Positions 22,877-57,580 of a DNA stretch of 64,000 bases are shown piece by piece (positions within the stretch are counted from its first letter, which is position 1; each line of letters begins with the position of its first letter). The position numbers and the translations under genes are program-made. The notes beneath the pieces are model-generated. The model was not told where the DNA came from and searched no databases. It saw only the letters and a program-made list of their open reading frames with translations. The stretch comes from Gammaproteobacteria bacterium (GTDB lineage: Bacteria; Pseudomonadota; Gammaproteobacteria; Burkholderiales; Gallionellaceae), in NCBI GenBank assembly GCA_018819205.1, contig JAHJQE010000036.1, positions 1,587-65,586 on the forward strand. Reading direction: 5' to 3'.

Positions 22877-24046
22877 ATGTCTGACAATGAATACCAGCTT
22901 GAGACCTTGGCCGTCAGGGCAGGGCGTGTGCAAACCCCTTTCATGGAACATGGCGAGGCGATGTTCCTGACCTCGAGTTTCACTTTCGATAACGCTGCAC
23001 AGGCCGCCCGGCGCTTCATCGGCGAAGAGCCGGGCAACATCTATGCGCGCTTCACCAATCCCACGACCAGCATGTTCGAGGAAAGACTGGCTGCGCTGGA
23101 AGGGGCGGAGCAGTGCGTGGCGACATCCAGCGGCATGGCCGCCATCCTGTCGTGTGGCATGGGTTTGCTGAAAGCGGGGGACCACATCGTCGCCTCGCGC
23201 AGCCTGTTCGGTTCGACAATCAACCTGTTCAACAACTACTTCAAGAAGTTCGGCGTGGAGACGACTTACGTCTCGGCTACCGATGTGGCGGAATGGCAGG
23301 CAGCGGTGCGTCCGAACACCAAGCTGTTCTTCCTCGAGACGCCATCCAACCCGCTGACCGAAATCTCAGATATCGCAGCCATCGCGGCCATCGCCAAAGG
23401 CTGCGGTGCCTTGCTGGCGGTGGATAACTGTTTCTGCACGCCCATCCTGCAGCGCCCGCTGGAACTGGGTGCGGACATCGTCATCCATTCCGCCACAAAG
23501 TACATCGACGGACAGGGACGCGTGCTGGGCGGCGCGGTGCTGGGCAGCAAGAAACTGATGGAGCCGGTGTACGGTTTCCTGCGTACCGCAGGACCGACCA
23601 TGAGCGCGTTCAACGCCTGGGTGTTCCTCAAGGGTCTGGAGACGCTCAAGCTGCGCATGGAGGCGCACAGCACCAATGCCTTGCAGCTGGCGCAATGGCT
23701 GGAGCAGCAGCCCAACGTGGCACGGGTGCTTTATCCCGGCCTGCCGTCGCATCCGCAACATGCGCTGGCGATGAAGCAGCAGAAGACCGGCGGCGGCATC
23801 GTGGCGTTCGAAGTGAAGGGCGGCAAGGAAGCGGCATGGCGCGTGATCGACAACACCAAGCTGTTGTCGATTACTGCCAATCTGGGTGATACCAAGACCA
23901 CCATCACTCATCCGGCCACCACCACTCACGCGCGCATCACACCGGAAGCCAGAGCGGCGGCAGGCATCACAGATGGCCTGATCCGCATTGCGGTCGGCCT
24001 GGAGGCGGTGGTCGACATCCAGAACGATCTCGCAAGAGGATTGTGA
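22877..24046 (+). CDS. metZ: O-succinylhomoserine sulfhydrylase
   Basis: YARFTNPT, HSATKYIDGQGR PLP lysine, ANLGDTKT; GGAGG SD; start could be 22874. Confidence 0.95.
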   Translation: MSDNEYQLETLAVRAGRVQTPFMEHGEAMFLTSSFTFDNAAQAARRFIGEEPGNIYARFTNPTTSMFEERLAALEGAEQCVATSSGMAAILSCGMGLLKAGDHIVASRSLFGSTINLFNNYFKKFGVETTYVSATDVAEWQAAVRPNTKLFFLETPSNPLTEISDIAAIAAIAKGCGALLAVDNCFCTPILQRPLELGADIVIHSATKYIDGQGRVLGGAVLGSKKLMEPVYGFLRTAGPTMSAFNAWVFLKGLETLKLRMEAHSTNALQLAQWLEQQPNVARVLYPGLPSHPQHALAMKQQKTGGGIVAFEVKGGKEAAWRVIDNTKLLSITANLGDTKTTITHPATTTHARITPEARAAAGITDGLIRIAVGLEAVVDIQNDLARGL

Positions 24047-24537
24047 TGGACGCGTTGGCGGCACAGGTCGGCGGGGCACTCAAGGCGCACGGCATGATGC
24101 TGGCAACGGCAGAATCATGCACCGGTGGTGGAATCGCGCAGGCAGTCACCAGTATCGCCGGCAGTTCTGCCTGGTTCGACCGCGGTTTTGTCACTTATAC
24201 CAACCTGTCCAAGCAGCAGATGCTGGGCGTGCTGGAGTCCACACTGATCACCTATGGCGCAGTGTCGGAGGCGGTCGTGCGCGAGATGGCAGAGGGCGTG
24301 CTGCGCAACAGTACGGCGCAGGTGTCGCTGGCGGTGAGCGGCATCGCAGGTCCTGACGGCGGTACACCGGACAAGCCGGTCGGTACGGTCTGGTTCGCCT
24401 GGGCGTTTGCCGACGGCGTCATCACGACAGCGCATCACCAGTTTTCTGGCGATCGGAACGAGGTGAGAGCGCAGGCGGTGCGAGTGGCGTTGCAGGGTGT
24501 ACTTGAGCGGCTGTCACAAAATACCCTCTCCGCATAA
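24046..24537 (+). CDS. pncC: CinA C-terminal domain / NMN amidohydrolase
   Basis: [29 protein letters not shown]. Confidence 0.9.
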
Positions 24538-24541
24538 AAAA

Positions 24542-24553
24542 GAACGAACGTTC
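24542..24553. promoter_or_regulatory. Non-canonical LexA box GAACGAACGTTC
   Basis: GAAC-N4-GTTC palindrome 60 bp upstream of recA; same as the motif I recall reported for Sideroxydans LexA. Confidence 0.8.
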
Positions 24554-24613
24554 TGTACAACGCGAAAACGTTGTGCAACAATCCGCTCCGAAATTTTCCC
24601 AAGGAGATCGAAC

Positions 24614-25633
24614 ATGGATGACAACAAAAGCAAGGCTCTCGCGGCGGCACTGAGCCAGATCGAAAAACAATTCGGCAAGGGTTCCATCATGCGCCTCGGC
24701 GAGAGTGATGTAGCCAAGGACATCGAGGTCGTCTCCACCGGCTCGCTCGGTCTGGACATCGCGCTGGGTGTGGGCGGTCTGCCGCGCGGCCGTGTGGTCG
24801 AGATCTACGGCCCGGAATCGTCCGGCAAGACTACACTGACCTTGCAGGTTATCGCCGAGATGCAAAAGCTGGGCGGCACTGCGGCTTTCATCGATGCAGA
24901 GCATGCTCTCGATCCTCAATATGCACAGAAGCTGGGAGTGAAGGTGGAAGATCTGCTGATCTCGCAACCTGACAACGGTGAACAGGCGCTGGAGATCGCC
25001 GACATGCTGGTGCGCTCCAGTTCGGTAGATGTGGTGGTGATCGACTCTGTCGCTGCATTGACGCCGCGCGCCGAGATCGAGGGCGAGATGGGTGATTCGC
25101 AGATGGGGCTGCATGCCCGCCTGATGTCACAAGCCCTGCGCAAACTCACCGCCAACATCAAGCGCTCCAACACGCTGGTCATCTTCATCAACCAGATTCG
25201 CATGAAGATCGGTGTGATGTTCGGCAATCCCGAAACCACCACCGGTGGCAATGCACTCAAGTTCTACGCCTCGGTGCGACTGGACATCCGACGCACCGGT
25301 TCGATCAAGAAGGGTGACGAGGTGATCGGCAACGAGACCCGCGTCAAGGTGGTGAAGAACAAGGTCGCGCCGCCGTTCAAGGAAGCGCATTTCGACATCC
25401 TGTACGGGGAAGGCATCTCGCGCGAGGGCGAGATCGTCGAGCTGGGTGTTCAGAACAAGATCGTTGAGAAGTCCGGCGCTTGGTATGCCTACAACGGCGA
25501 GAAGATCGGGCAGGGCAAGGACAATGCGCGCGAGTTCCTGCGTAACAATCCAGAGATCGCCATCGAGATTGAGAATCGCGTCCGCGAATCTCTGGGAGTC
25601 AATGCCTTATCAACGGCTGCGAGCGAAGATTGA
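24614..25633 (+). CDS. recA: Recombinase RecA
   Basis: [22 protein letters not shown]; AAGGAG SD. Confidence 0.99.
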
Positions 25634-25727
25634 TGACCGGTTCGGATGCGATTTCGGCGGAGGCTCATATGCGCGAAGCGCATGTGAAAGCCGCGCATGC
25701 GGCTGGCCGGAACCAAAATCGCGTCCG
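25574..25727. mobile_element. 143-bp structured insertion or element scar at 11-bp direct repeat AATCGCGTCCG in recA 3' end
   Basis: Repeat at 25574-25584 and 25717-25727; internal hairpins at 25665-25687 and 25689-25704. Confidence 0.6.
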
Positions 25728-25779
25728 TGAGTCGCTCGGCGTGACTGCGCTGAACGCAGGTGCAGAAGCCGAAGCCTGA
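25717..25779 (+). pseudogene. Displaced second copy of recA C-terminal tail ([20 protein letters not shown])
   Basis: Peptide matches current RecA end [12 protein letters not shown]; out of frame with recA; overlaps recX GTG. Confidence 0.8.
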
Positions 25780-26317
25780 GCACCTCGTTACACTTTCCGT
25801 TCGTCCTGAGTGCCGCGCAGAGCGCGGTGTATCGAAGGAGAACGGAAACCACTCGGCACACCCGGAAAAAAGTCTAAGGGAACGCGCCATGCGCTATCTG
25901 GCGCGGCGCGAGCATAGCCGTGGCGAACTGCGGCAAAAGCTGCAGCCGTATGTGCAGGAAGGCGAAGACCTGGATGCAGTGCTGGACGACATGGAAAGAC
26001 GCAACTGGCTTTCCGATGCGCGCGCAGCCACGCAACTGGTGGATGCCAAACGCGGCCGATTCGGTAGCCAGCGTATCGCCCACGAGCTGCGCCAGCGCGG
26101 TATCGGCGAAGATCTGATCGCCGGGGCGCTGCCCGAGCTGAAAGCCTCCGAGCTGGAAACCGCGCGCGATGTGTGGCAACGCAAGTTCGGCCAACCTCCG
26201 CAGGAAGCCAAGGAAAAGGCGCGACAGATGCGTTTTTTGCAGTCGCGTGGATTCTCCACTGATGTGATCCTCAAAGTCCTGAAATCAGCCGCCGGTAGTC
26301 TGGCCGACGAGAGCTGA
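25760..26317 (+). CDS. recX: Regulatory protein RecX (start uncertain)
   Basis: SLRERAMRYLARREHSR, WLSDAR, RFLQSRGFS. Confidence 0.93.
   Translation: MQKPKPEHLVTLSVRPECRAERGVSKENGNHSAHPEKSLRERAMRYLARREHSRGELRQKLQPYVQEGEDLDAVLDDMERRNWLSDARAATQLVDAKRGRFGSQRIAHELRQRGIGEDLIAGALPELKASELETARDVWQRKFGQPPQEAKEKARQMRFLQSRGFSTDVILKVLKSAAGSLADES
25794..25848. repeat. 55-nt palindromic element in recX 5' region
   Basis: TTTCCGTTC/GAACGGAAA outer stem, TCCT/AGGA, GCCGCGC-AGA-GCGCGGT inner stem. Confidence 0.75.
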
Positions 26318-26415
26318 AGCCATGCCCTAACTGTCTGTCAAATGGTATGATTCGTGCCGTGATGCCGCCTGTTGGGCGGCGTGTTTATTGAACGATTGCG
26401 GCCAGCGGTGACCAG

Positions 26416-29037
<2,622 letters not shown>

Positions 29038-51438: not shown

Positions 51439-52221
51439 TTACAAACTCTCTACATTTGAACCGTTCTTTGTAGCTGTGGTACGCAAGGATTTTGATGCGG
51501 CTTTCGCAATTTTCTTTCGTGCTTCATCTGCTTTTTCGCCTTCAATTACTTCACGTTTTATGACTTCATTCAGGAGTACATCTTTTATTTGCTCAATATC
51601 GATGCGTACATCCGGAGAAATACGGTGCAATTCCCGGCGAATGATTTTTAGAACATCGTCTGTTTGAAGCATGGCTCCGACAAAAAATCGGGAGAGAGCT
51701 TGTTGCTGATTGTGATATTCGCCAAGAACAGAATGTTGCCAGCCTTCTTTACACCATAGGTAAAGCATTTCAAGATCGTGCTGGCTGCGAATATTCAAGG
51801 TGGTAAAGTCAATATTGACTACTAATTCACTAGAAATGGGTTTTGAAAAAGTCAGGTGATAAACGCGCCAGCAGATACCGTTTGTGAGCAATACCCAATC
51901 CACCCCTTGATTGGCTGCGTAATCGACCGCTTGTTTAACATGCTGGTCCTTTAAGTCCAATCCAATGGCTTTTACTTCAATAAGGGTTTGCAGACGACCA
52001 TTTACTTTGGTGGCTAAATCACAATAAGTACCCCTGATAGCATATTCGGAAGTTAGCTCAGAGTATTTGTCGTATCCAAAGATATCTTGGAACATATCCT
52101 TGATGATCGTGACAGTATCCGCTTCACCTACATCACGTGATTTCGCGGCTTCAAGAATTGGTTGGTATTTTTTGATGCCACTTACCAGTCGCTCAGCAAC
52201 TTTCTTTGGAATAGAAGCCAT
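51439..52221 (-). CDS. Stand-alone HsdR N-terminal-like PD-(D/E)xK nuclease
   Basis: EADT...CDL...LIEVK...QAVDY...LLTNG; visibly AT-richer than core genes. Confidence 0.8.
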   Translation of the reverse strand: MASIPKKVAERLVSGIKKYQPILEAAKSRDVGEADTVTIIKDMFQDIFGYDKYSELTSEYAIRGTYCDLATKVNGRLQTLIEVKAIGLDLKDQHVKQAVDYAANQGVDWVLLTNGICWRVYHLTFSKPISSELVVNIDFTTLNIRSQHDLEMLYLWCKEGWQHSVLGEYHNQQQALSRFFVGAMLQTDDVLKIIRRELHRISPDVRIDIEQIKDVLLNEVIKREVIEGEKADEARKKIAKAASKSLRTTATKNGSNVESL

Positions 52222-52284
52222 CGTTTTCCCCTTTTGCGAACAAGTTATGTGCTAACACTGTTCCCGTCAGTGCGGGAATCACGT

Positions 52285-52406
52285 CTTGCGCCAGCCTCCT
52301 GTTCCGGGGATTTCGCTGCGTGCCTCGCGCCGTTCGTGCGGGGCGATGTGCGTTGAGCGAATCTGCAAGTGCTCGAACTCTAGGACAGCGGTGCGGGCGG
52401 TGTCAA
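52285..52406 (-). ncRNA. Repeated promoter-leader module, copy 1
   Basis: TTGACA-N18-TAGAGT then structured core 52285-52369. Confidence 0.75.
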
Positions 52407-52445
52407 TCGATGTTTGCACCGCTAGGTTTCCTGTCCCGCTAACTG

Positions 52446-53054
52446 TCAGAAATTGTAGATGCCTATGTAGTGCGTGGTTTTCTGCTGTTCGTCCTTGATG
52501 GCGGTGATGGTGAGCCAGAAGGGGTGGAGGATGCGACCGTCCTTGTTCTTGATGCGTATCTCGCCGCACCATGAACCTCTTTCATGCAGTCGCTTCCACA
52601 TCTGTTCATAGAAGGGTTTGTCATGCATGCCGGATTTGAAGATACGCGGATTCTTTCCTACGATCTCGTCCATGGTGTAGCCTGATTTGGTCAGGAACTT
52701 CTCGTTGGCCCGGATGATGTTGGCATCGGCATCGGTGATGATGGTGGGGTCCTTGATCTCGAAAGCGACAGCGGCGATGCGCAGATCATCCTCTATCAGT
52801 CTGGATTCGGCGATGCGTCTGATCAAAGGCCTGAAGATCAGATAGTAGAAGAAGGGGAAGAGCAGCAGAGACAGCAAAGCGGAATCCAGCAAGGTGCTGT
52901 TCATTCTGCTCATGGGTGGGAGCAGACGCACCACTTCCATCACGAACGCTTCGCTGAAAAACACTGCCGCGATCAGGATGATCAGCAGTCTCTTTACCGA
53001 CTGATGGGTTTCTTTTTTTTGATGCTCTTGCGGAGCTGATAGATGATTGGACAT
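52446..53054 (-). CDS. 2-TM plus PAS sensor protein with no output domain
   Basis: IITDADANIIRAN, GKNPRIFKSG, WCGEIRIKNKDG; ends right at PAS C-terminus. Confidence 0.8.
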   Translation of the reverse strand: MSNHLSAPQEHQKKETHQSVKRLLIILIAAVFFSEAFVMEVVRLLPPMSRMNSTLLDSALLSLLLFPFFYYLIFRPLIRRIAESRLIEDDLRIAAVAFEIKDPTIITDADANIIRANEKFLTKSGYTMDEIVGKNPRIFKSGMHDKPFYEQMWKRLHERGSWCGEIRIKNKDGRILHPFWLTITAIKDEQQKTTHYIGIYNF

Positions 53055-53219
53055 GGTGGCCTCGCTGTTATTTGATCGTCATGCAGACAAACCGGCGACA
53101 TTCATGATTCTTCCGGGTGCGATGTGAGGCCGGTGTGTTTGCGTTCGGGTGTTTTCACATTGCTTAACAGTCCGTGCGTGCGCTGCGAAGTAAGTAGAGC
53201 GCATCAGCGACCTGATTGA

Positions 53220-53248
53220 ACTGTAGGCCTGGTGGTCACGACTGTCAA
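53220..53248 (-). promoter_or_regulatory. Putative sigma70 promoter of the PAS gene
   Basis: TTGACA-N17-TACAGT. Confidence 0.55.
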
Positions 53249-53332
53249 CGCTGCAAACAGGGTTGTGTGATCTGGGTTGATTGATACACTTCGCGCATGG
53301 CCCTGTGGGCATCCATACGAAGAGGCGTGCAC

Positions 53333-53989
53333 ATGAAAAAGGAATTCTGGCTGGAGCGGTGGGAGCGCGCGGAGATCGGCTTCCATCAGGAGGAAGTGAA
53401 TCCGTATTTGCTGAAGTATTGGGGCGAGTTACATGAGGCAAAGGGCGGCGAAGTGTTCGTTCCTTTGTGCGGCAAGAGCCTGGATATGCTGTGGCTGCGC
53501 CAGCAGGGGCATGATGTGCTGGGTGTGGAACTGAGTCCGATCGCGGTGCGCGATTTCTTTGCCGAGAGCAATCTGACGTTGACGCATACAAGCGAAGGCC
53601 ACTTCGATCGTTGTGAGGCGGATGGTATCCGTATCCTGTGCGGTGATTTCTTCGAACTGTCACGCGATCATCTGTCGCGGGTGAGTGCGGTGTTCGACCG
53701 TGCCTCGCTGGTGGCGCTGCCGCCGGAGATGCGCGAACGCTATGCGCGCCACCTGGCGGAGATATTGCCTTCCGGTACGCAGACCCTGCTGGTGACGTTC
53801 GATTATCCGCAGCAGGAGATGCCGGGGCCGCCATTCGCGGTGTCGGTGGAGGAGGTGCGGGCGCTCTACAGCGCGTATGCCGATATCCGTTTGCTGGCGC
53901 AGGAGGATATCCTGGATCGTGAACCGCGCTTCAAGGTGCGCGGTGTGACGAGGATGCAGGAGAACATCTTCTTGCTGACGATCAACTAG
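53333..53989 (+). CDS. tpm: Thiopurine S-methyltransferase
   Basis: FWLERW, VPLCGKSLDM, FDRASLVALP, GPPFAV. Confidence 0.93.
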   Translation: MKKEFWLERWERAEIGFHQEEVNPYLLKYWGELHEAKGGEVFVPLCGKSLDMLWLRQQGHDVLGVELSPIAVRDFFAESNLTLTHTSEGHFDRCEADGIRILCGDFFELSRDHLSRVSAVFDRASLVALPPEMRERYARHLAEILPSGTQTLLVTFDYPQQEMPGPPFAVSVEEVRALYSAYADIRLLAQEDILDREPRFKVRGVTRMQENIFLLTIN

Positions 53990-54072
53990 TTCCCATGTTG
54001 AGGTTGGCGTATCGACAGGTGATGGTTTACATGCCTTGCCCGTGGTCGATCAGCCTGATTTGGTGAGTGCGC

Positions 54073-55092
54073 TTAACGATAAGCCCCGCATCGGCTGTAT
54101 GCGGCATGAGTGGTCACGTTAGGTATGGTCAGTTGTTGATTGACGCAGCTCCAGTATCTTTTTTCTTTCTGGAGGCTCATCTCTTCTGCTCGCTTTTCCT
54201 GTTGCAATCTGCGTTCTTCAGCTTGTTCGCGTTGCAGTCTTAACCTTTCTTGCTCGGTCTCATAGCGCCTTTCCTGTTCATATCTTTGCTGATCAAGTGT
54301 GCGTGTTCGCAATTCGTATTCCTGCCGTTGGCGCTCCATTGCTATTTCAGCTGCTGATTGCTTAATGTCGATATCTGCATAGGTTTCAACTCTATCTGTT
54401 TCGGTGGTGGCGTTGGCAAAATCGCGCTGGATATCTACGACTTCCTTCTGAATCGAATGTGAGTTCTTTGCCTTGAAAAAGTCGAGACCGAGGTATCCCA
54501 GCAGGACGAGAGAAAGTACTCCTATGACCACTGAACCTTTATGACCGGACAACCAAGTGGTGGCTTTTGGCAGGTCTTCATAATCGACCAGGTTATTCCT
54601 TCGCGTCATTTCATTGTTGACGCTTTCGAGGAGCTTGCGGTCATACTGTTCGCGCAAGCTCGGATCGCCCAATACCCTTTTTGCATAATTGAATTCCGAG
54701 ATGGAAGTTGCGGAAGCGATCTGATTATCCACTTCACGTTCAGCGATGGTTGAGGCGACCGTGGCATCCGATGCATCTGCGCCCAGTCCCAGCGTGATAT
54801 AGAGACTGGATTTCTTGGTTATGGCCAATTTCCGTTTGAGCTCGGCGCGCAATCTGTCTAATTCTGTGTTGCCTTGTGTGAAACTTGGCTGAATTGGATT
54901 GGAGTTGGTTGCCGGGACCGTATTCAGTGAGGGGGTTCGAAGCAGATCACGGTATCTGAGGCGGATATAGGCAGCTTTGGTTTTATCGATATCAGCGTCT
55001 GAAATTGCCAATGCTTGAGTCCAGATAGCCGGGTCGGTTTTATTCGACGCAAGTTCATCTGAAATGATTTGGTAATAGACCTTGTCTGACAT
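54073..55092 (-). CDS. Hypothetical membrane protein with degenerate J-like segment and coiled coil
   Basis: LYITLGLGADAS...VLGDPSLREQYD, one TM, E/R/Q-rich tail; AT-richer; start could be 55161. Confidence 0.7.
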   Translation of the reverse strand: MSDKVYYQIISDELASNKTDPAIWTQALAISDADIDKTKAAYIRLRYRDLLRTPSLNTVPATNSNPIQPSFTQGNTELDRLRAELKRKLAITKKSSLYITLGLGADASDATVASTIAEREVDNQIASATSISEFNYAKRVLGDPSLREQYDRKLLESVNNEMTRRNNLVDYEDLPKATTWLSGHKGSVVIGVLSLVLLGYLGLDFFKAKNSHSIQKEVVDIQRDFANATTETDRVETYADIDIKQSAAEIAMERQRQEYELRTRTLDQQRYEQERRYETEQERLRLQREQAEERRLQQEKRAEEMSLQKEKRYWSCVNQQLTIPNVTTHAAYSRCGAYR

Positions 55093-55367
55093 TTGTAATG
55101 TTCCAGGTTGGTAGCTGTCTGTCTTTCTTGGATGCAATTGTTTTTTTAGCTTGCATTCCAATGAATCCGAACTGTCAGGAAAATTAACATAAATCTCCGC
55201 AGTAAGTTTGTGGAAATATATCTATATATAGGGGCCTGCAGATATAGATATTGCATGGCAGAAAAAGAGTGCGGGATGGGCGTGAGACTGCATCTGGCAA
55301 GTCGCCGATGCAGATGCTCAGCACAATTTCATGGATGAATAGGCTGGATGCGATTCAAAATACATGG

Positions 55368-55943
55368 CTAAACGACAGTGAGCCCGAGCGAGCACCAGTC
55401 CTGCATGCCGCCGCGGTACCACTTCAATTTCACGGCGGGGTAGCCGAGTGCGAGCAGGGTGCGGATGTAGTTGGGCGTCTGGCCGCACCATGGGCCGTTG
55501 CAGAAGATGGCGAGGTTGCGGGCGTGGCTGAAGTCGAAACCTGCATTGATTTCTTCCACACCGAACAGCTCCAGCAATGTCTTTTTCACACCTGGCAGGT
55601 CGGTCGGTTGTCCGGCCATGTTCTGTACAAAGGGCACGTTCATCGAGCCGGGGATGGTGACTTTCTCATACCAGTCCGCTGTGCGTGAATCGATCACCAT
55701 GCATTGCGTGTCGCCCGCGTGGATGCGCTGCAGATAGTCCAGCATTTCCAGTTCGCCGAATGTCTCGACGCCCTCAGCCAGTCGCATCGGCTGGATGCAG
55801 TAGGGCGGGCAGGCGCGCGCGGTGGGCGCATACTCGGCACGGATGGTGGCGGAAGGGTCTTGTTCGCGCTGGATGGCGACGGGCTGGCCGTGGTGCAGCA
55901 CCGTAACCGTGGGCAGGCCCACGGTGATTTGGTATTCGGTCAT
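55368..55943 (-). CDS. Rhodanese-like sulfurtransferase (SoxL-like)
   Basis: CPPYCIQP, IDSRT, TIPGS, FCNGPWCGQT, WYRGGMQDW. Confidence 0.85.
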   Translation of the reverse strand: MTEYQITVGLPTVTVLHHGQPVAIQREQDPSATIRAEYAPTARACPPYCIQPMRLAEGVETFGELEMLDYLQRIHAGDTQCMVIDSRTADWYEKVTIPGSMNVPFVQNMAGQPTDLPGVKKTLLELFGVEEINAGFDFSHARNLAIFCNGPWCGQTPNYIRTLLALGYPAVKLKWYRGGMQDWCSLGLTVV

Positions 55944-56007
55944 GCATTGTTTCCGATGATGGTGTTAAACGGGATTGAGGGCCGTCAGGCCCGGCCTTCA
56001 TTGTTGG

Positions 56008-56166
56008 CTACCCACCGGCAGCTGCCTTTTCCTTGGCACATTCCGGGCAGCCTTCACTCGGCAGGAAGACCAGACCGTGCTTGGGGCAGCGTTGCAGGAT
56101 GACGGTCTTGCCGTCGTGCTCGCCTTCTTCGTTGATGATGATGGAGTCGTCGTCGGGGTGGGTCAT
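56008..56166 (-). CDS. 52-aa putative zinc-binding microprotein (below ORF-track cutoff)
   Basis: Hand translation MTHPDDDSIIINEEGEHDGKTVILQRCPKHGLVFLPSEGCPECAKEKAAAGG; GAGGAGG SD. Confidence 0.7.
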   Translation of the reverse strand: MTHPDDDSIIINEEGEHDGKTVILQRCPKHGLVFLPSEGCPECAKEKAAAGG

Positions 56167-56220
56167 GGTTTCCTCCTCTTTTAATGGAATGCGCCGTAAC
56201 GATCGCTACTTGGCTTTCAT

Positions 56221-56484
56221 TTAATCAGGGCCAAACAGTTCATCCAGCGGGTTCTTGCCAGTGGGTGCATAGGCAGATACTTTTTTCACTGTGAACTCTT
56301 CTTCGATGTTGTCGCGGAAGAAACTCCATGCCGCACCCGAACTGCTGAGCCTGCGCCAGAGGTCTTCTCCGACACCAAGATATTGCAATGTGTCGCCATT
56401 GTCGAGTTGAACTTGCAGCGTGCGCGCCCGTGCATCGTAGCCGATGGCGCGCAACTTGCCGGAGTTGATCTTCTTCATTTCCAT
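56221..56484 (-). CDS. KTSC domain protein
   Basis: SGKLRAIGYD...LQVQL...QY...WSFFRDNI. Confidence 0.85.
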   Translation of the reverse strand: MEMKKINSGKLRAIGYDARARTLQVQLDNGDTLQYLGVGEDLWRRLSSSGAAWSFFRDNIEEEFTVKKVSAYAPTGKNPLDELFGPD

Positions 56485-56504
56485 GCGCCTGCTCCTTCAG
56501 TGGT

Positions 56505-57398
56505 TCACTGCAGGATAAACGAAGTCTTCAACGGCAGGTTGATGTGTCCGACGTTGTCCTTGAGGGTGATGCTGACTTGCCACACACCGTACGGATCGTT
56601 CTGTTCACCGATGAATTTGATGATCGGCGCTGAGAGGTAGAGATAGTTCGGCTGGCCTTTGAGTGTACCTTTGAAACAAGTGGCATCAGTCTGCTGGAAT
56701 GAGGCAATACCGTCCGGTTTGCGCAGGTCGATATCGCATGTGATATCGGCAACCCCACGATCGTCGAGTTTGGGGTTGCTGAAGAAGGTGAGGGCGTAGA
56801 CGGGCTTACCTTTTGAGATGGTTTCGGCCATGCTGAAGTGCGGGATGGAGGCAGGCTCTGTTTTCCATTTCCTTTCCCAGTCGGTATCAGCGGTGACGAG
56901 CAGCCAACCGCCAAATCCATTCTGAACTTTTCTGGAATCGGAATCTGGTTCTAAGCGTCCCTGAGCGTCTTTCCACCCTGAGTCGAGTCTTTTGAGCTGG
57001 ATCTGGACGGGTTGCGACATCATCATCAGCGCGACCAGGGTGTATTCCTTTTCGCCGGGACGGAAGATGGAATCTTGCCGACAGAACGCGAACGCGTGGT
57101 TATGGACGCAGGAAGGATGGGTATCGTTCAGTTCGTTCTCGCTAAAGAAGCGTGCCAAGTCGTGCGCTTTGGACTCTTTCAGCAGGCAGTTGCGCGCACA
57201 GGTGGCGCTGGCCCAAGTGCCGTCCGGTTGGCGTTGCTCGACATTCCACTGGCCCTCGTTATGCGAGACGAAGAAGGTGAAGTCGGTGATGTGTCCGTCA
57301 CGATGCATTACGGCGTAGTTGCCGCTGTCTGTTTGATCGAGCGCGGATGCGTTAAGCATGAAGCTGAAGAGCGCGAAAAATGCTATGCGGTGAATCAT
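56505..57398 (-). CDS. Secreted hypothetical protein (start re-set to MIHRIAFF)
   Basis: AAAGGGG SD, signal-peptide-like N-terminus; the ORF-track upstream extension crosses the leader module. Confidence 0.7.
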   Translation of the reverse strand: MIHRIAFFALFSFMLNASALDQTDSGNYAVMHRDGHITDFTFFVSHNEGQWNVEQRQPDGTWASATCARNCLLKESKAHDLARFFSENELNDTHPSCVHNHAFAFCRQDSIFRPGEKEYTLVALMMMSQPVQIQLKRLDSGWKDAQGRLEPDSDSRKVQNGFGGWLLVTADTDWERKWKTEPASIPHFSMAETISKGKPVYALTFFSNPKLDDRGVADITCDIDLRKPDGIASFQQTDATCFKGTLKGQPNYLYLSAPIIKFIGEQNDPYGVWQVSITLKDNVGHINLPLKTSFILQ

Positions 57399-57459
57399 GA
57401 AGTCCCCTTTATTGCGAACTGGATCAATCTGGCTGCTCCCGTCATGGCGGGAATCATGT

Positions 57460-57580
57460 CTTGCGCCAGCCTCCTGTTCCGGGGATCTCGTCTTTGGCCC
57501 CACACCGTGCATGCGGTGCGATGTGCCTTGTACGAACTGCAAGTTGTGTATGAATGTAGGGGGAAGTAGGGGAGCTGTCA
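57460..57580 (-). ncRNA. Repeated promoter-leader module, copy 2
   Basis: TTGACA-N16-TACATT then structured core 57460-57543. Confidence 0.75.

Follow-up and report, generated by a model that had tools for sequence, protein, structure and literature searches.

A 143-bp insertion in the 3′ end of recA that looks like a small RecA-tail cassette in Gallionellaceae

The recA gene in a 64,000-nt stretch of the genome of an iron-oxidising member of the Gallionellaceae (assembly GCA_018819205.1, contig JAHJQE010000036.1, positions 1,587 to 65,586; the whole stretch is called the window) carries a 143-bp insertion that supplies a new C-terminal tail and displaces the native one. We consider these 143 bp to be probably one copy of a family of non-autonomous, site-specific 'RecA-tail cassettes' that preserve both recA and the coupling of recA to recX. 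Related cassettes occupy the same recA codon in other species, and the unit thus seems to be a very small kind of element, not described before, that is specialised for a single essential gene; a limited literature search found no description of tail cassettes in recA. A sequence-only reading of the window had already proposed a discrete element that targets the recA 3′ end, brings in a new tail and displaces the native one; this is supported here and extended to a family. New relative to that reading are an inverted copy of the recA core, a bridge open reading frame (ORF), stacked units in relatives and a second small insertion downstream. The features of the recA 3′ end are as follows.

24614–25633, plus strand: recA coding sequence as now read, 339 aa, from the ORF list and Pfam and PDB matches
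25574–25584, plus strand: core copy 1, AATCGCGTCCG, codons N321-R322-V323-R324
25585–25633, plus strand: replacement C-terminal tail (tail A), 15 aa followed by TGA, with rare codons
25717–25727, plus strand: core copy 2, AATCGCGTCCG, which is both the module 3′ arm and the start of the displaced native recA end
25717–25779, plus strand: displaced native 3′ end of recA, no longer in the recA frame; its orthologue is the in-frame tail at the related locus L083

The 11-mer AATCGCGTCCG is present in the window at 25574 and 25717 only, with 0.08 occurrences expected and two copies in none of 100 shuffles. The two copies form a direct repeat of 32 nt with 78% identity, and the spacing of 143 nt equals three times 47 plus 2. 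Both copies of the tail encode RESLGV(N/T)AL, with synonymous differences and almost all codons recoded, so that the repeat count and the alignment bear out the repeat described earlier. The 143 bp are placed at 25585–25727, with exact boundaries that are ambiguous inside the repeated core; the ancestral core repeat was longer, about 17–20 nt, and reads A[A/G]AATCGCGTCCGCGAATC. The recA stop is directly followed by a second in-frame TGA (25634–25636), and the displaced tail ends with TGA at 25777–25779.

The in-frame tail uses codons that are rare within their synonymous families (TCT 7%, GGA 8%, TTA 1%, TCA 6%, GCT 10%). Scored by codon use against 16-codon windows taken from 23 genes of the window, it falls into the lowest 0.6%, whereas the displaced tail is ordinary in the same comparison (18th percentile), in agreement with the earlier description of a tail of rare codons followed by a host-like one. 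Tail A aligns with the C-terminal tail of E. coli RecA, after ...EIEKKVR, and both tails are alike in length and charge, being short and acidic. In E. coli, this tail sets the readiness of RecA for DNA loading and its response to RecX and DinI.

Analysis of the stretch between the two tails revealed a structured module of about 85 nt, with three recognisable parts.

25644–25654, plus strand: module 5′ arm, GGATGCGATTT, an inverted copy of the recA core, complementary to AATCGCGTCCG at 10 of 11 bases
25665–25687, plus strand: hairpin 1, a 10-bp stem with a GAA loop within a GCGAAGC mini-hairpin motif (25673–25679)
25689–25704, plus strand: hairpin 2, a 6-bp stem (A/G)GCCGC...GCGGC(T/C) with a variable 4-nt loop

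The stretch folds at −44.3 kcal/mol (z = −2.6), and across seven aligned modules 95% of the alignment cells are paired in the proposed structure. Hairpin 1 shows one compensatory change, C-G to U-A, in locus L100, and hairpin 2 shows a compensatory A-U to G-C change that splits the sequences 3 versus 4, while slid controls of the structure gave zero compensatory changes. In hairpin 1 the loop reads GCGNAGC, and all four bases (A, G, T and C) occur at N in one lineage or another; the loop of hairpin 2 is free to vary across lineages. The GCGNAGC type of motif forms an extraordinarily stable DNA mini-hairpin (PMC13037366). The two hairpins of the sequence-only reading thus stand on compensatory changes, and its outer pairing of GGTTCGG with CCGGAACC gives way to a better one between GGATGCGATTT at 25644–25654 and core copy 2 at 25717–25727. 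This outer stem encloses both hairpins and is intact in five lineages but disrupted in L100 and L101. In these two, core 2 reads AACAAAG and the arm matches core 1 instead (13/13 in L100), which indicates that the constant feature is the arm as an inverted copy of the recA core. A search of 24000–27000 gave no Rfam match at E ≤ 1. The insert is without a terminator-like site, the operon terminator lying after recX, and one contig from a library labelled metatranscriptomic spans 25336–25990.

The arrangement was found unchanged in other assemblies. Two further metagenome-assembled genomes (MAGs; L001 and L002, L001 with 28 single-nucleotide polymorphisms (SNPs) in 5.6 kb) have the identical RecA protein and DNA arrangement, and at least 9 independent assemblies share the arrangement. 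In landfill, groundwater, biofilm and other runs, unbroken Logan contigs cover 25396–26046. RecA homologues place the window in the Gallionellaceae, near Sideroxyarcus sp. TK5 (97% identity). The insert occupies the identical position in three Sideroxyarcus-like species, represented by the window with L001 and L002, by L084–88 (TK5-type contigs from five sources, with Sideroxyarcus sp. TK5 labelled as an isolate) and by L089–91.

Empty sites were also found. One of the closest RecAs (P0004, 96%) ends in the displaced tail read in frame, and its contig, L083, lacks exactly 143 bp; an empty site ending ...NAGAEAEA had been predicted from the window. L083 is the sister of the filled locus L089, with a recA nucleotide difference of 7.4%. 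A second empty site, L099, is the sister of the filled L100 and nested within another filled clade on the recA tree, where lineages of the ENKVR type without the insert (L095, L092) fall between two filled groups. Also supported is the earlier suggestion that the native tail would be regained through a deletion across the repeat. In a side observation on the RecA homologues, P0001, a RecA-like protein of 459 aa, scored 835 bits, above full-length 339-aa RecAs, at 85% query coverage, and may be a partial internal duplication or fusion.

Searching with the 48-aa product of the bridge ORF described below retrieved three more small ORFs, and contigs and look-ups then led to four more lineages. L096, L098, L100 and L101 carry the same module of about 85 nt at the same N-R/K-V-R codons of recA, with a mean column identity of 87%. 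The replacement tails attached to it are unrelated by lineage: REAIGIAALTELSEA in L096, RDAVGIVALNAPREE in L097/L098, REAVGIVALGVAETEEE in L100 and RDAVGVTALAEPVEA in L101. L096 and L098 keep their own displaced native tails intact (RDAIGVAALGVGEAED and RDAVGMAALGGGEAED, respectively), and in L100 and L101 the native tail is reduced to decayed remnants. Five cassette types are distinguished, with unit sizes of 140–146 bp and core identity at the junctions of 11 nt in the window, 15–20 nt in L084 and L089 and 28 nt in L098. On the 12.8-kb contig of L100 there are two units with identical tail copies, the older module internally deleted and the native tail frameshifted; the 65-kb contig of L101 also has a second unit, which is decayed.

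A profile search with the bridge ORF against 1.84 billion representatives matched 19 clusters, of which at least 11 have recA-type tails at their ends, such as ...NRIREQLGIALLPPTVES and ...NKIREKLGVAARGAAPAE, which resemble the RecA tails of other Betaproteobacteria. The other 8 end otherwise, for example in ...NRRLLRGFTV*, some with two modules. Within P0161, P0162, P0172 and P0174–P0178, a module-like peptide ..ISxxA....VKAA.AAGR[NS]QN is followed by R(R/P)LLRGF(T/A/N)(V/E)* or other ends, and in several of the ORFs that do not end in a recA tail two modules lie 38–57 aa apart. These ORFs hint at possible further targets of the module family. Tblastn of the non-recA module-like ORFs against plasmids gave nothing useful.

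The insertion also bears on the gene after recA, through the following features.

25633–25779, plus strand: bridge ORF, 48 aa, running from the new recA stop through the module and the displaced tail to the native stop, with an equivalent in all five cassette types
25760–26317, plus strand: recX, with the ancestral GTG start at 25760 and the conserved RecX body from the ATG at 25889
26362–26382, plus strand: terminator-like hairpin and T-run after recX, the end of the recA-recX operon

At all empty sites, the GTG of recX lies about 20 nt 5′ of the recA stop (...GTGCAGAAGCCGAAGCCTGA), inside the native recA end, so that recX is set up for translational coupling. The GTG at 25760 in the window overlaps the native recA end just as in all empty-site relatives, which confirms the reported overlap of the downstream tail with the recX start. 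Filled sites of all five cassette types have an ATG close to the new recA stop, at −4 to +8 nt. In the window, the bridge ORF ATG (25633) overlaps the recA stop as TGATGA, and a GGAGG (25659–25663) with an ATG inside hairpin 1 (25669–25671) lies in the same frame. The stop/ATG junctions are dissimilar by type (TGATGA, TAACGAGGATG, TGAGGATG, TAATG and ATGA), and the unit lengths of 143, 143, 143, 143, 140, 146 and 140 are all 2 mod 3, a frame shift of +2. Gene callers had called equivalents of the bridge ORF in L089, L090, L100 and L101. In L101 the frame stays open across the decayed second unit, for 60 aa, to the native stop and recX start, and in L100 two bridge ORFs are chained via TAATG.

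Because the frame and the start codon are conserved, we infer that the bridge ORF serves as a relay through which translation of recX remains coupled to that of recA. Its reading as a conserved protein gene is weak, as synonymous and non-synonymous changes stand at about 1:1 in a hand count over the seven aligned modules; radical changes fall exactly in the hairpin loops, and nucleotide-level structure explains the pattern equally well. A programmed frameshift fusing both tails was rejected, since no cassette type has a slippery site at the stop.

Sequence divergence was compared among the three filled Sideroxyarcus-like species. Their recA nucleotides are 10–12% apart, with a proportion of synonymous differences (pS) of 0.38–0.44, and the insert differs by 2–5% between species. 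Variable sites make up 8/132 positions (6%) of the insert. By comparison, recA as a whole reaches 15.5% and its third codon positions 41%, the displaced tail 19%, recX 25% and cinA 27%; the recA promoter region alone is as conserved as the insert (5.5%). The replacement tails show 0–1 synonymous changes between species, versus about 5 expected at a pS of about 0.4. Differences specific to a species continue until 1 nt short of core 1 (25570, 25573), and beyond the insert they start again immediately behind core 2 (25728, 25731). With such differences abutting both cores, no flanking sequence moved with the insert, which argues against ordinary homologous replacement, and spread by homologous recombination with flanking crossovers was rejected. 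Between the displaced tail of L089 and its functional counterpart in L083 there are 4 synonymous and 0 non-synonymous changes, and the L089 copy has the look of sequence that encoded protein until recently. By our own estimate, the divergence of the insert is about one-tenth of that at neutral sites, and the small number of non-synonymous changes seen in displaced tails matches this scale. The divergence and the sharp boundaries fit a cassette that reached already separate species by site-specific insertion.

In the mechanism that we propose, a cassette would consist of a replacement tail (15–18 codons and a stop) and the two-hairpin module of about 85 nt, with an inverted-core 5′ arm and a direct-core 3′ end, and would enter recA by recombination at the N-R/K-V-R core. 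recA would then read into the cassette tail and stop there, the native tail being moved 140–146 nt downstream and into the +2 frame. The ATG at the new stop would open the bridge ORF, which leads to the native stop overlapping the recX start, so that ribosomes would be handed on and recA-recX translational coupling would survive the insertion. Cassettes would stack with the newest beside recA and older ones decaying downstream, and a deletion across the repeat would remove a cassette and bring back the native tail. Movement between lineages would occur via site-specific recombination, with the recombinase presumably supplied in trans, and the tail swap would be roughly neutral for RecA. The pairing of inverted arm and core, together with the very stable DNA mini-hairpin, favours a folded single strand as substrate, and analogy with attC and CTX-phi attP suggests that the recombinase may act on such a strand. 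A bolder and rather doubtful extension is that the module is the recombination site of a single-strand hairpin system in which the arm acts as a 'guide' to the target core; this would amount to programmable, integron-like tail swapping of essential genes, with recA as the main client and translation relayed to the next gene. The module-peptide ORFs ending in ...NRRLLRGFTV* hint at such other targets with matching arms.

Several results weigh against a mobile cassette. Pfam searches identified no integrase, transposase or other recombinase among the 54 ORFs of the window, and no recombinase adjoins recA in any related locus. A second copy of the insert or module was not detected in the window by BLAST or a covariance model, and the 86 further recA loci compared, which come from diverse Proteobacteria, contain neither a second tail nor a module. 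In IMG/VR, exact-pattern scans yielded 0 matches or chance matches that the covariance model rejected, and blastn of the insert against phages and plasmids gave no match. No junction skipping the 143 bp, and no circle, was found in contigs of 10 runs, although contigs hide rare forms. The insert is fixed in every species sampled (the window with L001 and L002, and the five TK5-type sources). Divergence of the module across deep lineages is about 10%, and this conservation implies that constraint, not recent transfer, explains part of the low divergence; several 66-nt stretches of recA coding sequence are also as conserved as the insert. The replacement tails resemble the host native tail over their first 6–9 residues, a likeness that could reflect local origin or gene conversion rather than import. 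The module comparison covers no more than seven distinct sequences. As to arrays, L097 has perfect 140-nt tandem units (635–969, at least 2.4 copies) up to the contig end; these may represent real copy-number variation or an assembly loop formed where the tails are identical over 28 nt, a loop being suspected because L097 has 1 SNP relative to the single-unit L098 and its contig ends inside the repeat.

Since the module is constrained over deeper time and parts of recA are equally conserved, mobility is held here as somewhat probable, and a fixed regulatory element as a possible, clearly less probable account. The latter would be an ancient vertical rearrangement in a Gallionellaceae ancestor that tunes the recA/recX ratio through structure-gated re-initiation or mRNA stability, with repeated precise deletions and no mobility. 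It gains from module divergence that roughly tracks host divergence (from 2–5% in the Sideroxyarcus group to about 10% between groups), from compensatory hairpin changes as a sign of long-term constraint, from a degree of conservation in the insert that equals that of the recA promoter region, and from fixation within species with no recombinase nearby. One gain with a loss in L083 also needs fewer events than three gains, and a direct repeat of 11–28 nt eases deletion. The same account needs at least four independent precise losses (L083, L099, L095 and L092, and many other ENKVR lineages), each restoring an intact tail after long displacement, yet the tails decay in L100 and L101, where the insert is old. 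It leaves unexplained the near-identical synonymous sites of the replacement tail between species, the solely synonymous difference between the displaced L089 and functional L083 tails, and the unrelated tails and foreign codon usage on the same module; a single old insertion would require nearly all positions of the insert, and the displaced tail as well, to be constrained.

A switch between two regulatory RecA tails had been raised by the sequence-only reading; it would involve frequent excision and re-integration within a population, for instance in the SOS response, and appears improbable. The geometry permits it, with direct repeats, a native tail that is intact and a frame that is restorable in the window, L084 and L089; sister species have empty sites, and selection acting while the cassette is excised could account for the intact displaced tails. 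Against it, the contigs of 10 runs, which drop rare variants, contained no skip-143 junction, presence/absence variation occurs in no species sampled, decay of the native tail makes restoration impossible in L100 and L101, the two tails have similar length and charge, and a recombinase gene is not nearby. The same reading had also offered an island scar; this would be the inert remnant of a larger integrase-bearing island, with attL and attR fused by internal deletion and no activity of its own. Integrative elements that restore the 3′ end of their target share its layout of core, replacement tail and displaced tail, and recA is a known island target in Vibrio (PMC4405046). Such a scar is nonetheless very improbable: the five types share unit size (140–146 bp), frame offset, structured module and a start codon at the stop, unlike independent random deletions, units are stacked, and no larger occupant, such as a multi-kb island at the core, was seen among about 100 loci fetched or matched in phage, plasmid and viral collections. 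A misassembly of two strain alleles of the recA 3′ end into one contig can be practically dismissed. The window does derive from MAGs, and the related contig L097 ends inside a perfect repeat; the arrangement nevertheless recurs in the isolate-labelled TK5, in the independent assemblies and in the spanning Logan contigs, and neither allele includes the 83 nt that separate the tails.

Further searches gave the following results. A donor, in which the 83 nt would come after a native ...STAASED tail of recA, was found neither among the 86 recA loci nor in L092 or L095. The one metagenome scan re-found the L089 contig and nothing else, and raw-read runs X23 and X24 contained zero reads of the source organism. 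In run X8, one 187-nt contig joins 25575 to 25883, skipping the tails, the module and the second insert (307 nt). With a depth of 11 and 6 mismatches in 63 nt, it represents another lineage and is not the 143-bp junction; it may be a chimeric unitig.

The neighbourhood of recA in the window is core genome (dnaK/J, leuCDB, asd, purF, cinA, recA, recX, alaS and purL), and cinA, recA, recX and alaS are neighbours at every locus examined. One further feature lies between recA and the body of recX.

25781–25882, plus strand: second small insertion, unrelated to the first, with a net gain of 87 nt and approximate boundaries; it keeps the frame of the ancestral recX start

This second insertion sits between the native recA stop and the conserved recX ATG, is extra relative to L083, L084 and L089, and gives a 185-aa ORF from the GTG. 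It contains a CCGCGC-AGA-GCGCGG hairpin flanked by 9-bp inverted repeats, TTTCCGTTC/GAACGGAAA. The 43-nt core of the insertion (25797–25839) has 3–6x depth and different flanks in contigs of several runs, which points to a multi-copy element resembling repetitive extragenic palindromes (REPs) or miniature inverted-repeat transposable elements (MITEs), lying 60 nt beyond the cassette. The core has no other copy in the window and no Rfam match.

The recX-alaS spacer is a second variable spot. It holds a C5 DNA methylase and HNH nuclease pair in L089 (4654–6219), two minus-strand ORFs of no assigned function in L101 (5648–6474), a VanY gene in L092 (3487–4008) and L093, and nothing in the window. 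Elsewhere in the window, 51439–57569 contains ORFs of low GC content at third codon positions (GC3; 0.38–0.57 versus about 0.7 elsewhere), with no Pfam match and no recombinase seen (51439–52221, 53079–53834, 54073–55161, 56528–56920 and 57012–57569), and is a possible foreign patch.

If the cassette reading is true, an element that exchanges exactly the RecA C-terminal tail, before a coupled recX, would be a new route for reshuffling RecA regulation between species, and would be the smallest known case of insertion into an essential gene with repair of the target. Although it carries no gene, the cassette appears to keep the target protein as well as downstream translation intact. If it is mobile, some recombinase recognises a structured 85-nt site, a question approachable by comparative genomics and with the cultivated Sideroxyarcus strain. 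For recA, which is widely used as a phylogenetic marker, tail and length differences in these bacteria would reflect cassette content and not point evolution.

Integrative elements such as e14 and phage 21 in icd, and islands targeting tRNA and tmRNA genes, rebuild the 3′ end of the gene that they enter. The recA cassette resembles elements of the e14/phage 21 type in its core at both junctions, diverged replacement 3′ end, displaced native end and empty sites, and differs in its size of 140–146 bp, the lack of an integrase or any protein of its own, the hairpin module, the arrays and the start-codon relay. In recA itself, the Vibrio cholerae element RME is 32.8 kb long, inserts 494 bp into the gene and carries an integrase, a complete divergent recA and 9-bp inverted repeats (PMC4405046). 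Both are site-specific insertions in recA that compensate for their own damage, but here only the tail is replaced, by a 143-bp unit.

Like REPs and bacterial interspersed mosaic elements (BIMEs), MITE-like elements and cis-mobilizable elements (CIMEs), the cassette is small, non-coding, hairpin-rich and non-autonomous, and can sit in an operon and affect downstream expression. Unlike REPs, BIMEs and MITEs, the module is single-copy in the window, always at the same recA codon and always with a gene tail. The high copy number of REPs and BIMEs is not seen, with one copy in 64 kb and none in about 85 other recA loci; of the MITE features, the inverted repeat is present, no target site duplication surrounds it, and BLAST and the covariance model identify a single copy in the window. 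The palindrome-associated transposable elements (PATEs) derived from IS200/IS605 have subterminal hairpins and insert 3′ of a fixed tetra- or pentanucleotide without duplication, in genomes with a TnpA (Y1 HUH). Hairpins are present in the cassette, and its repeated core argues against insertion without duplication. A diversity-generating retroelement was rejected, as the repeat differences involve all bases and not template adenines, and no reverse transcriptase lies in the window.

In the way it works, the cassette comes nearest to systems that use folded sites, namely integron cassettes and folded-attP elements, but it lacks the sequence and gene features that define them. Integron gene cassettes are likewise small and promoterless, end in an imperfect inverted repeat that folds as a hairpin, and enter one fixed site beside an expressed frame; in both, the newest unit of an array is proximal, and the sites vary in sequence while being conserved in structure. 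Unlike integron cassettes, the recA cassette has a 15–18-codon gene tail as payload and a target inside an essential gene, and intI and attI are absent from the window. Alignment of the modules shows ends of GGATGCGATTT... and ...CCAAAATCGCGTCCG, and the attC boxes RYYYAAC/GTTRRRY are absent. In comparison with CTX-phi, the target is not dif, no similarity to Xer sites was recognised, there is no phage genome, and the involvement of a single strand is inferred. The likeness to integration by CTX-phi and the integrative mobile elements exploiting Xer (IMEX) lies in an inverted repeat that can fold into a duplex mimicking the target core, in both arms at one end of the element, and in tandem copies.

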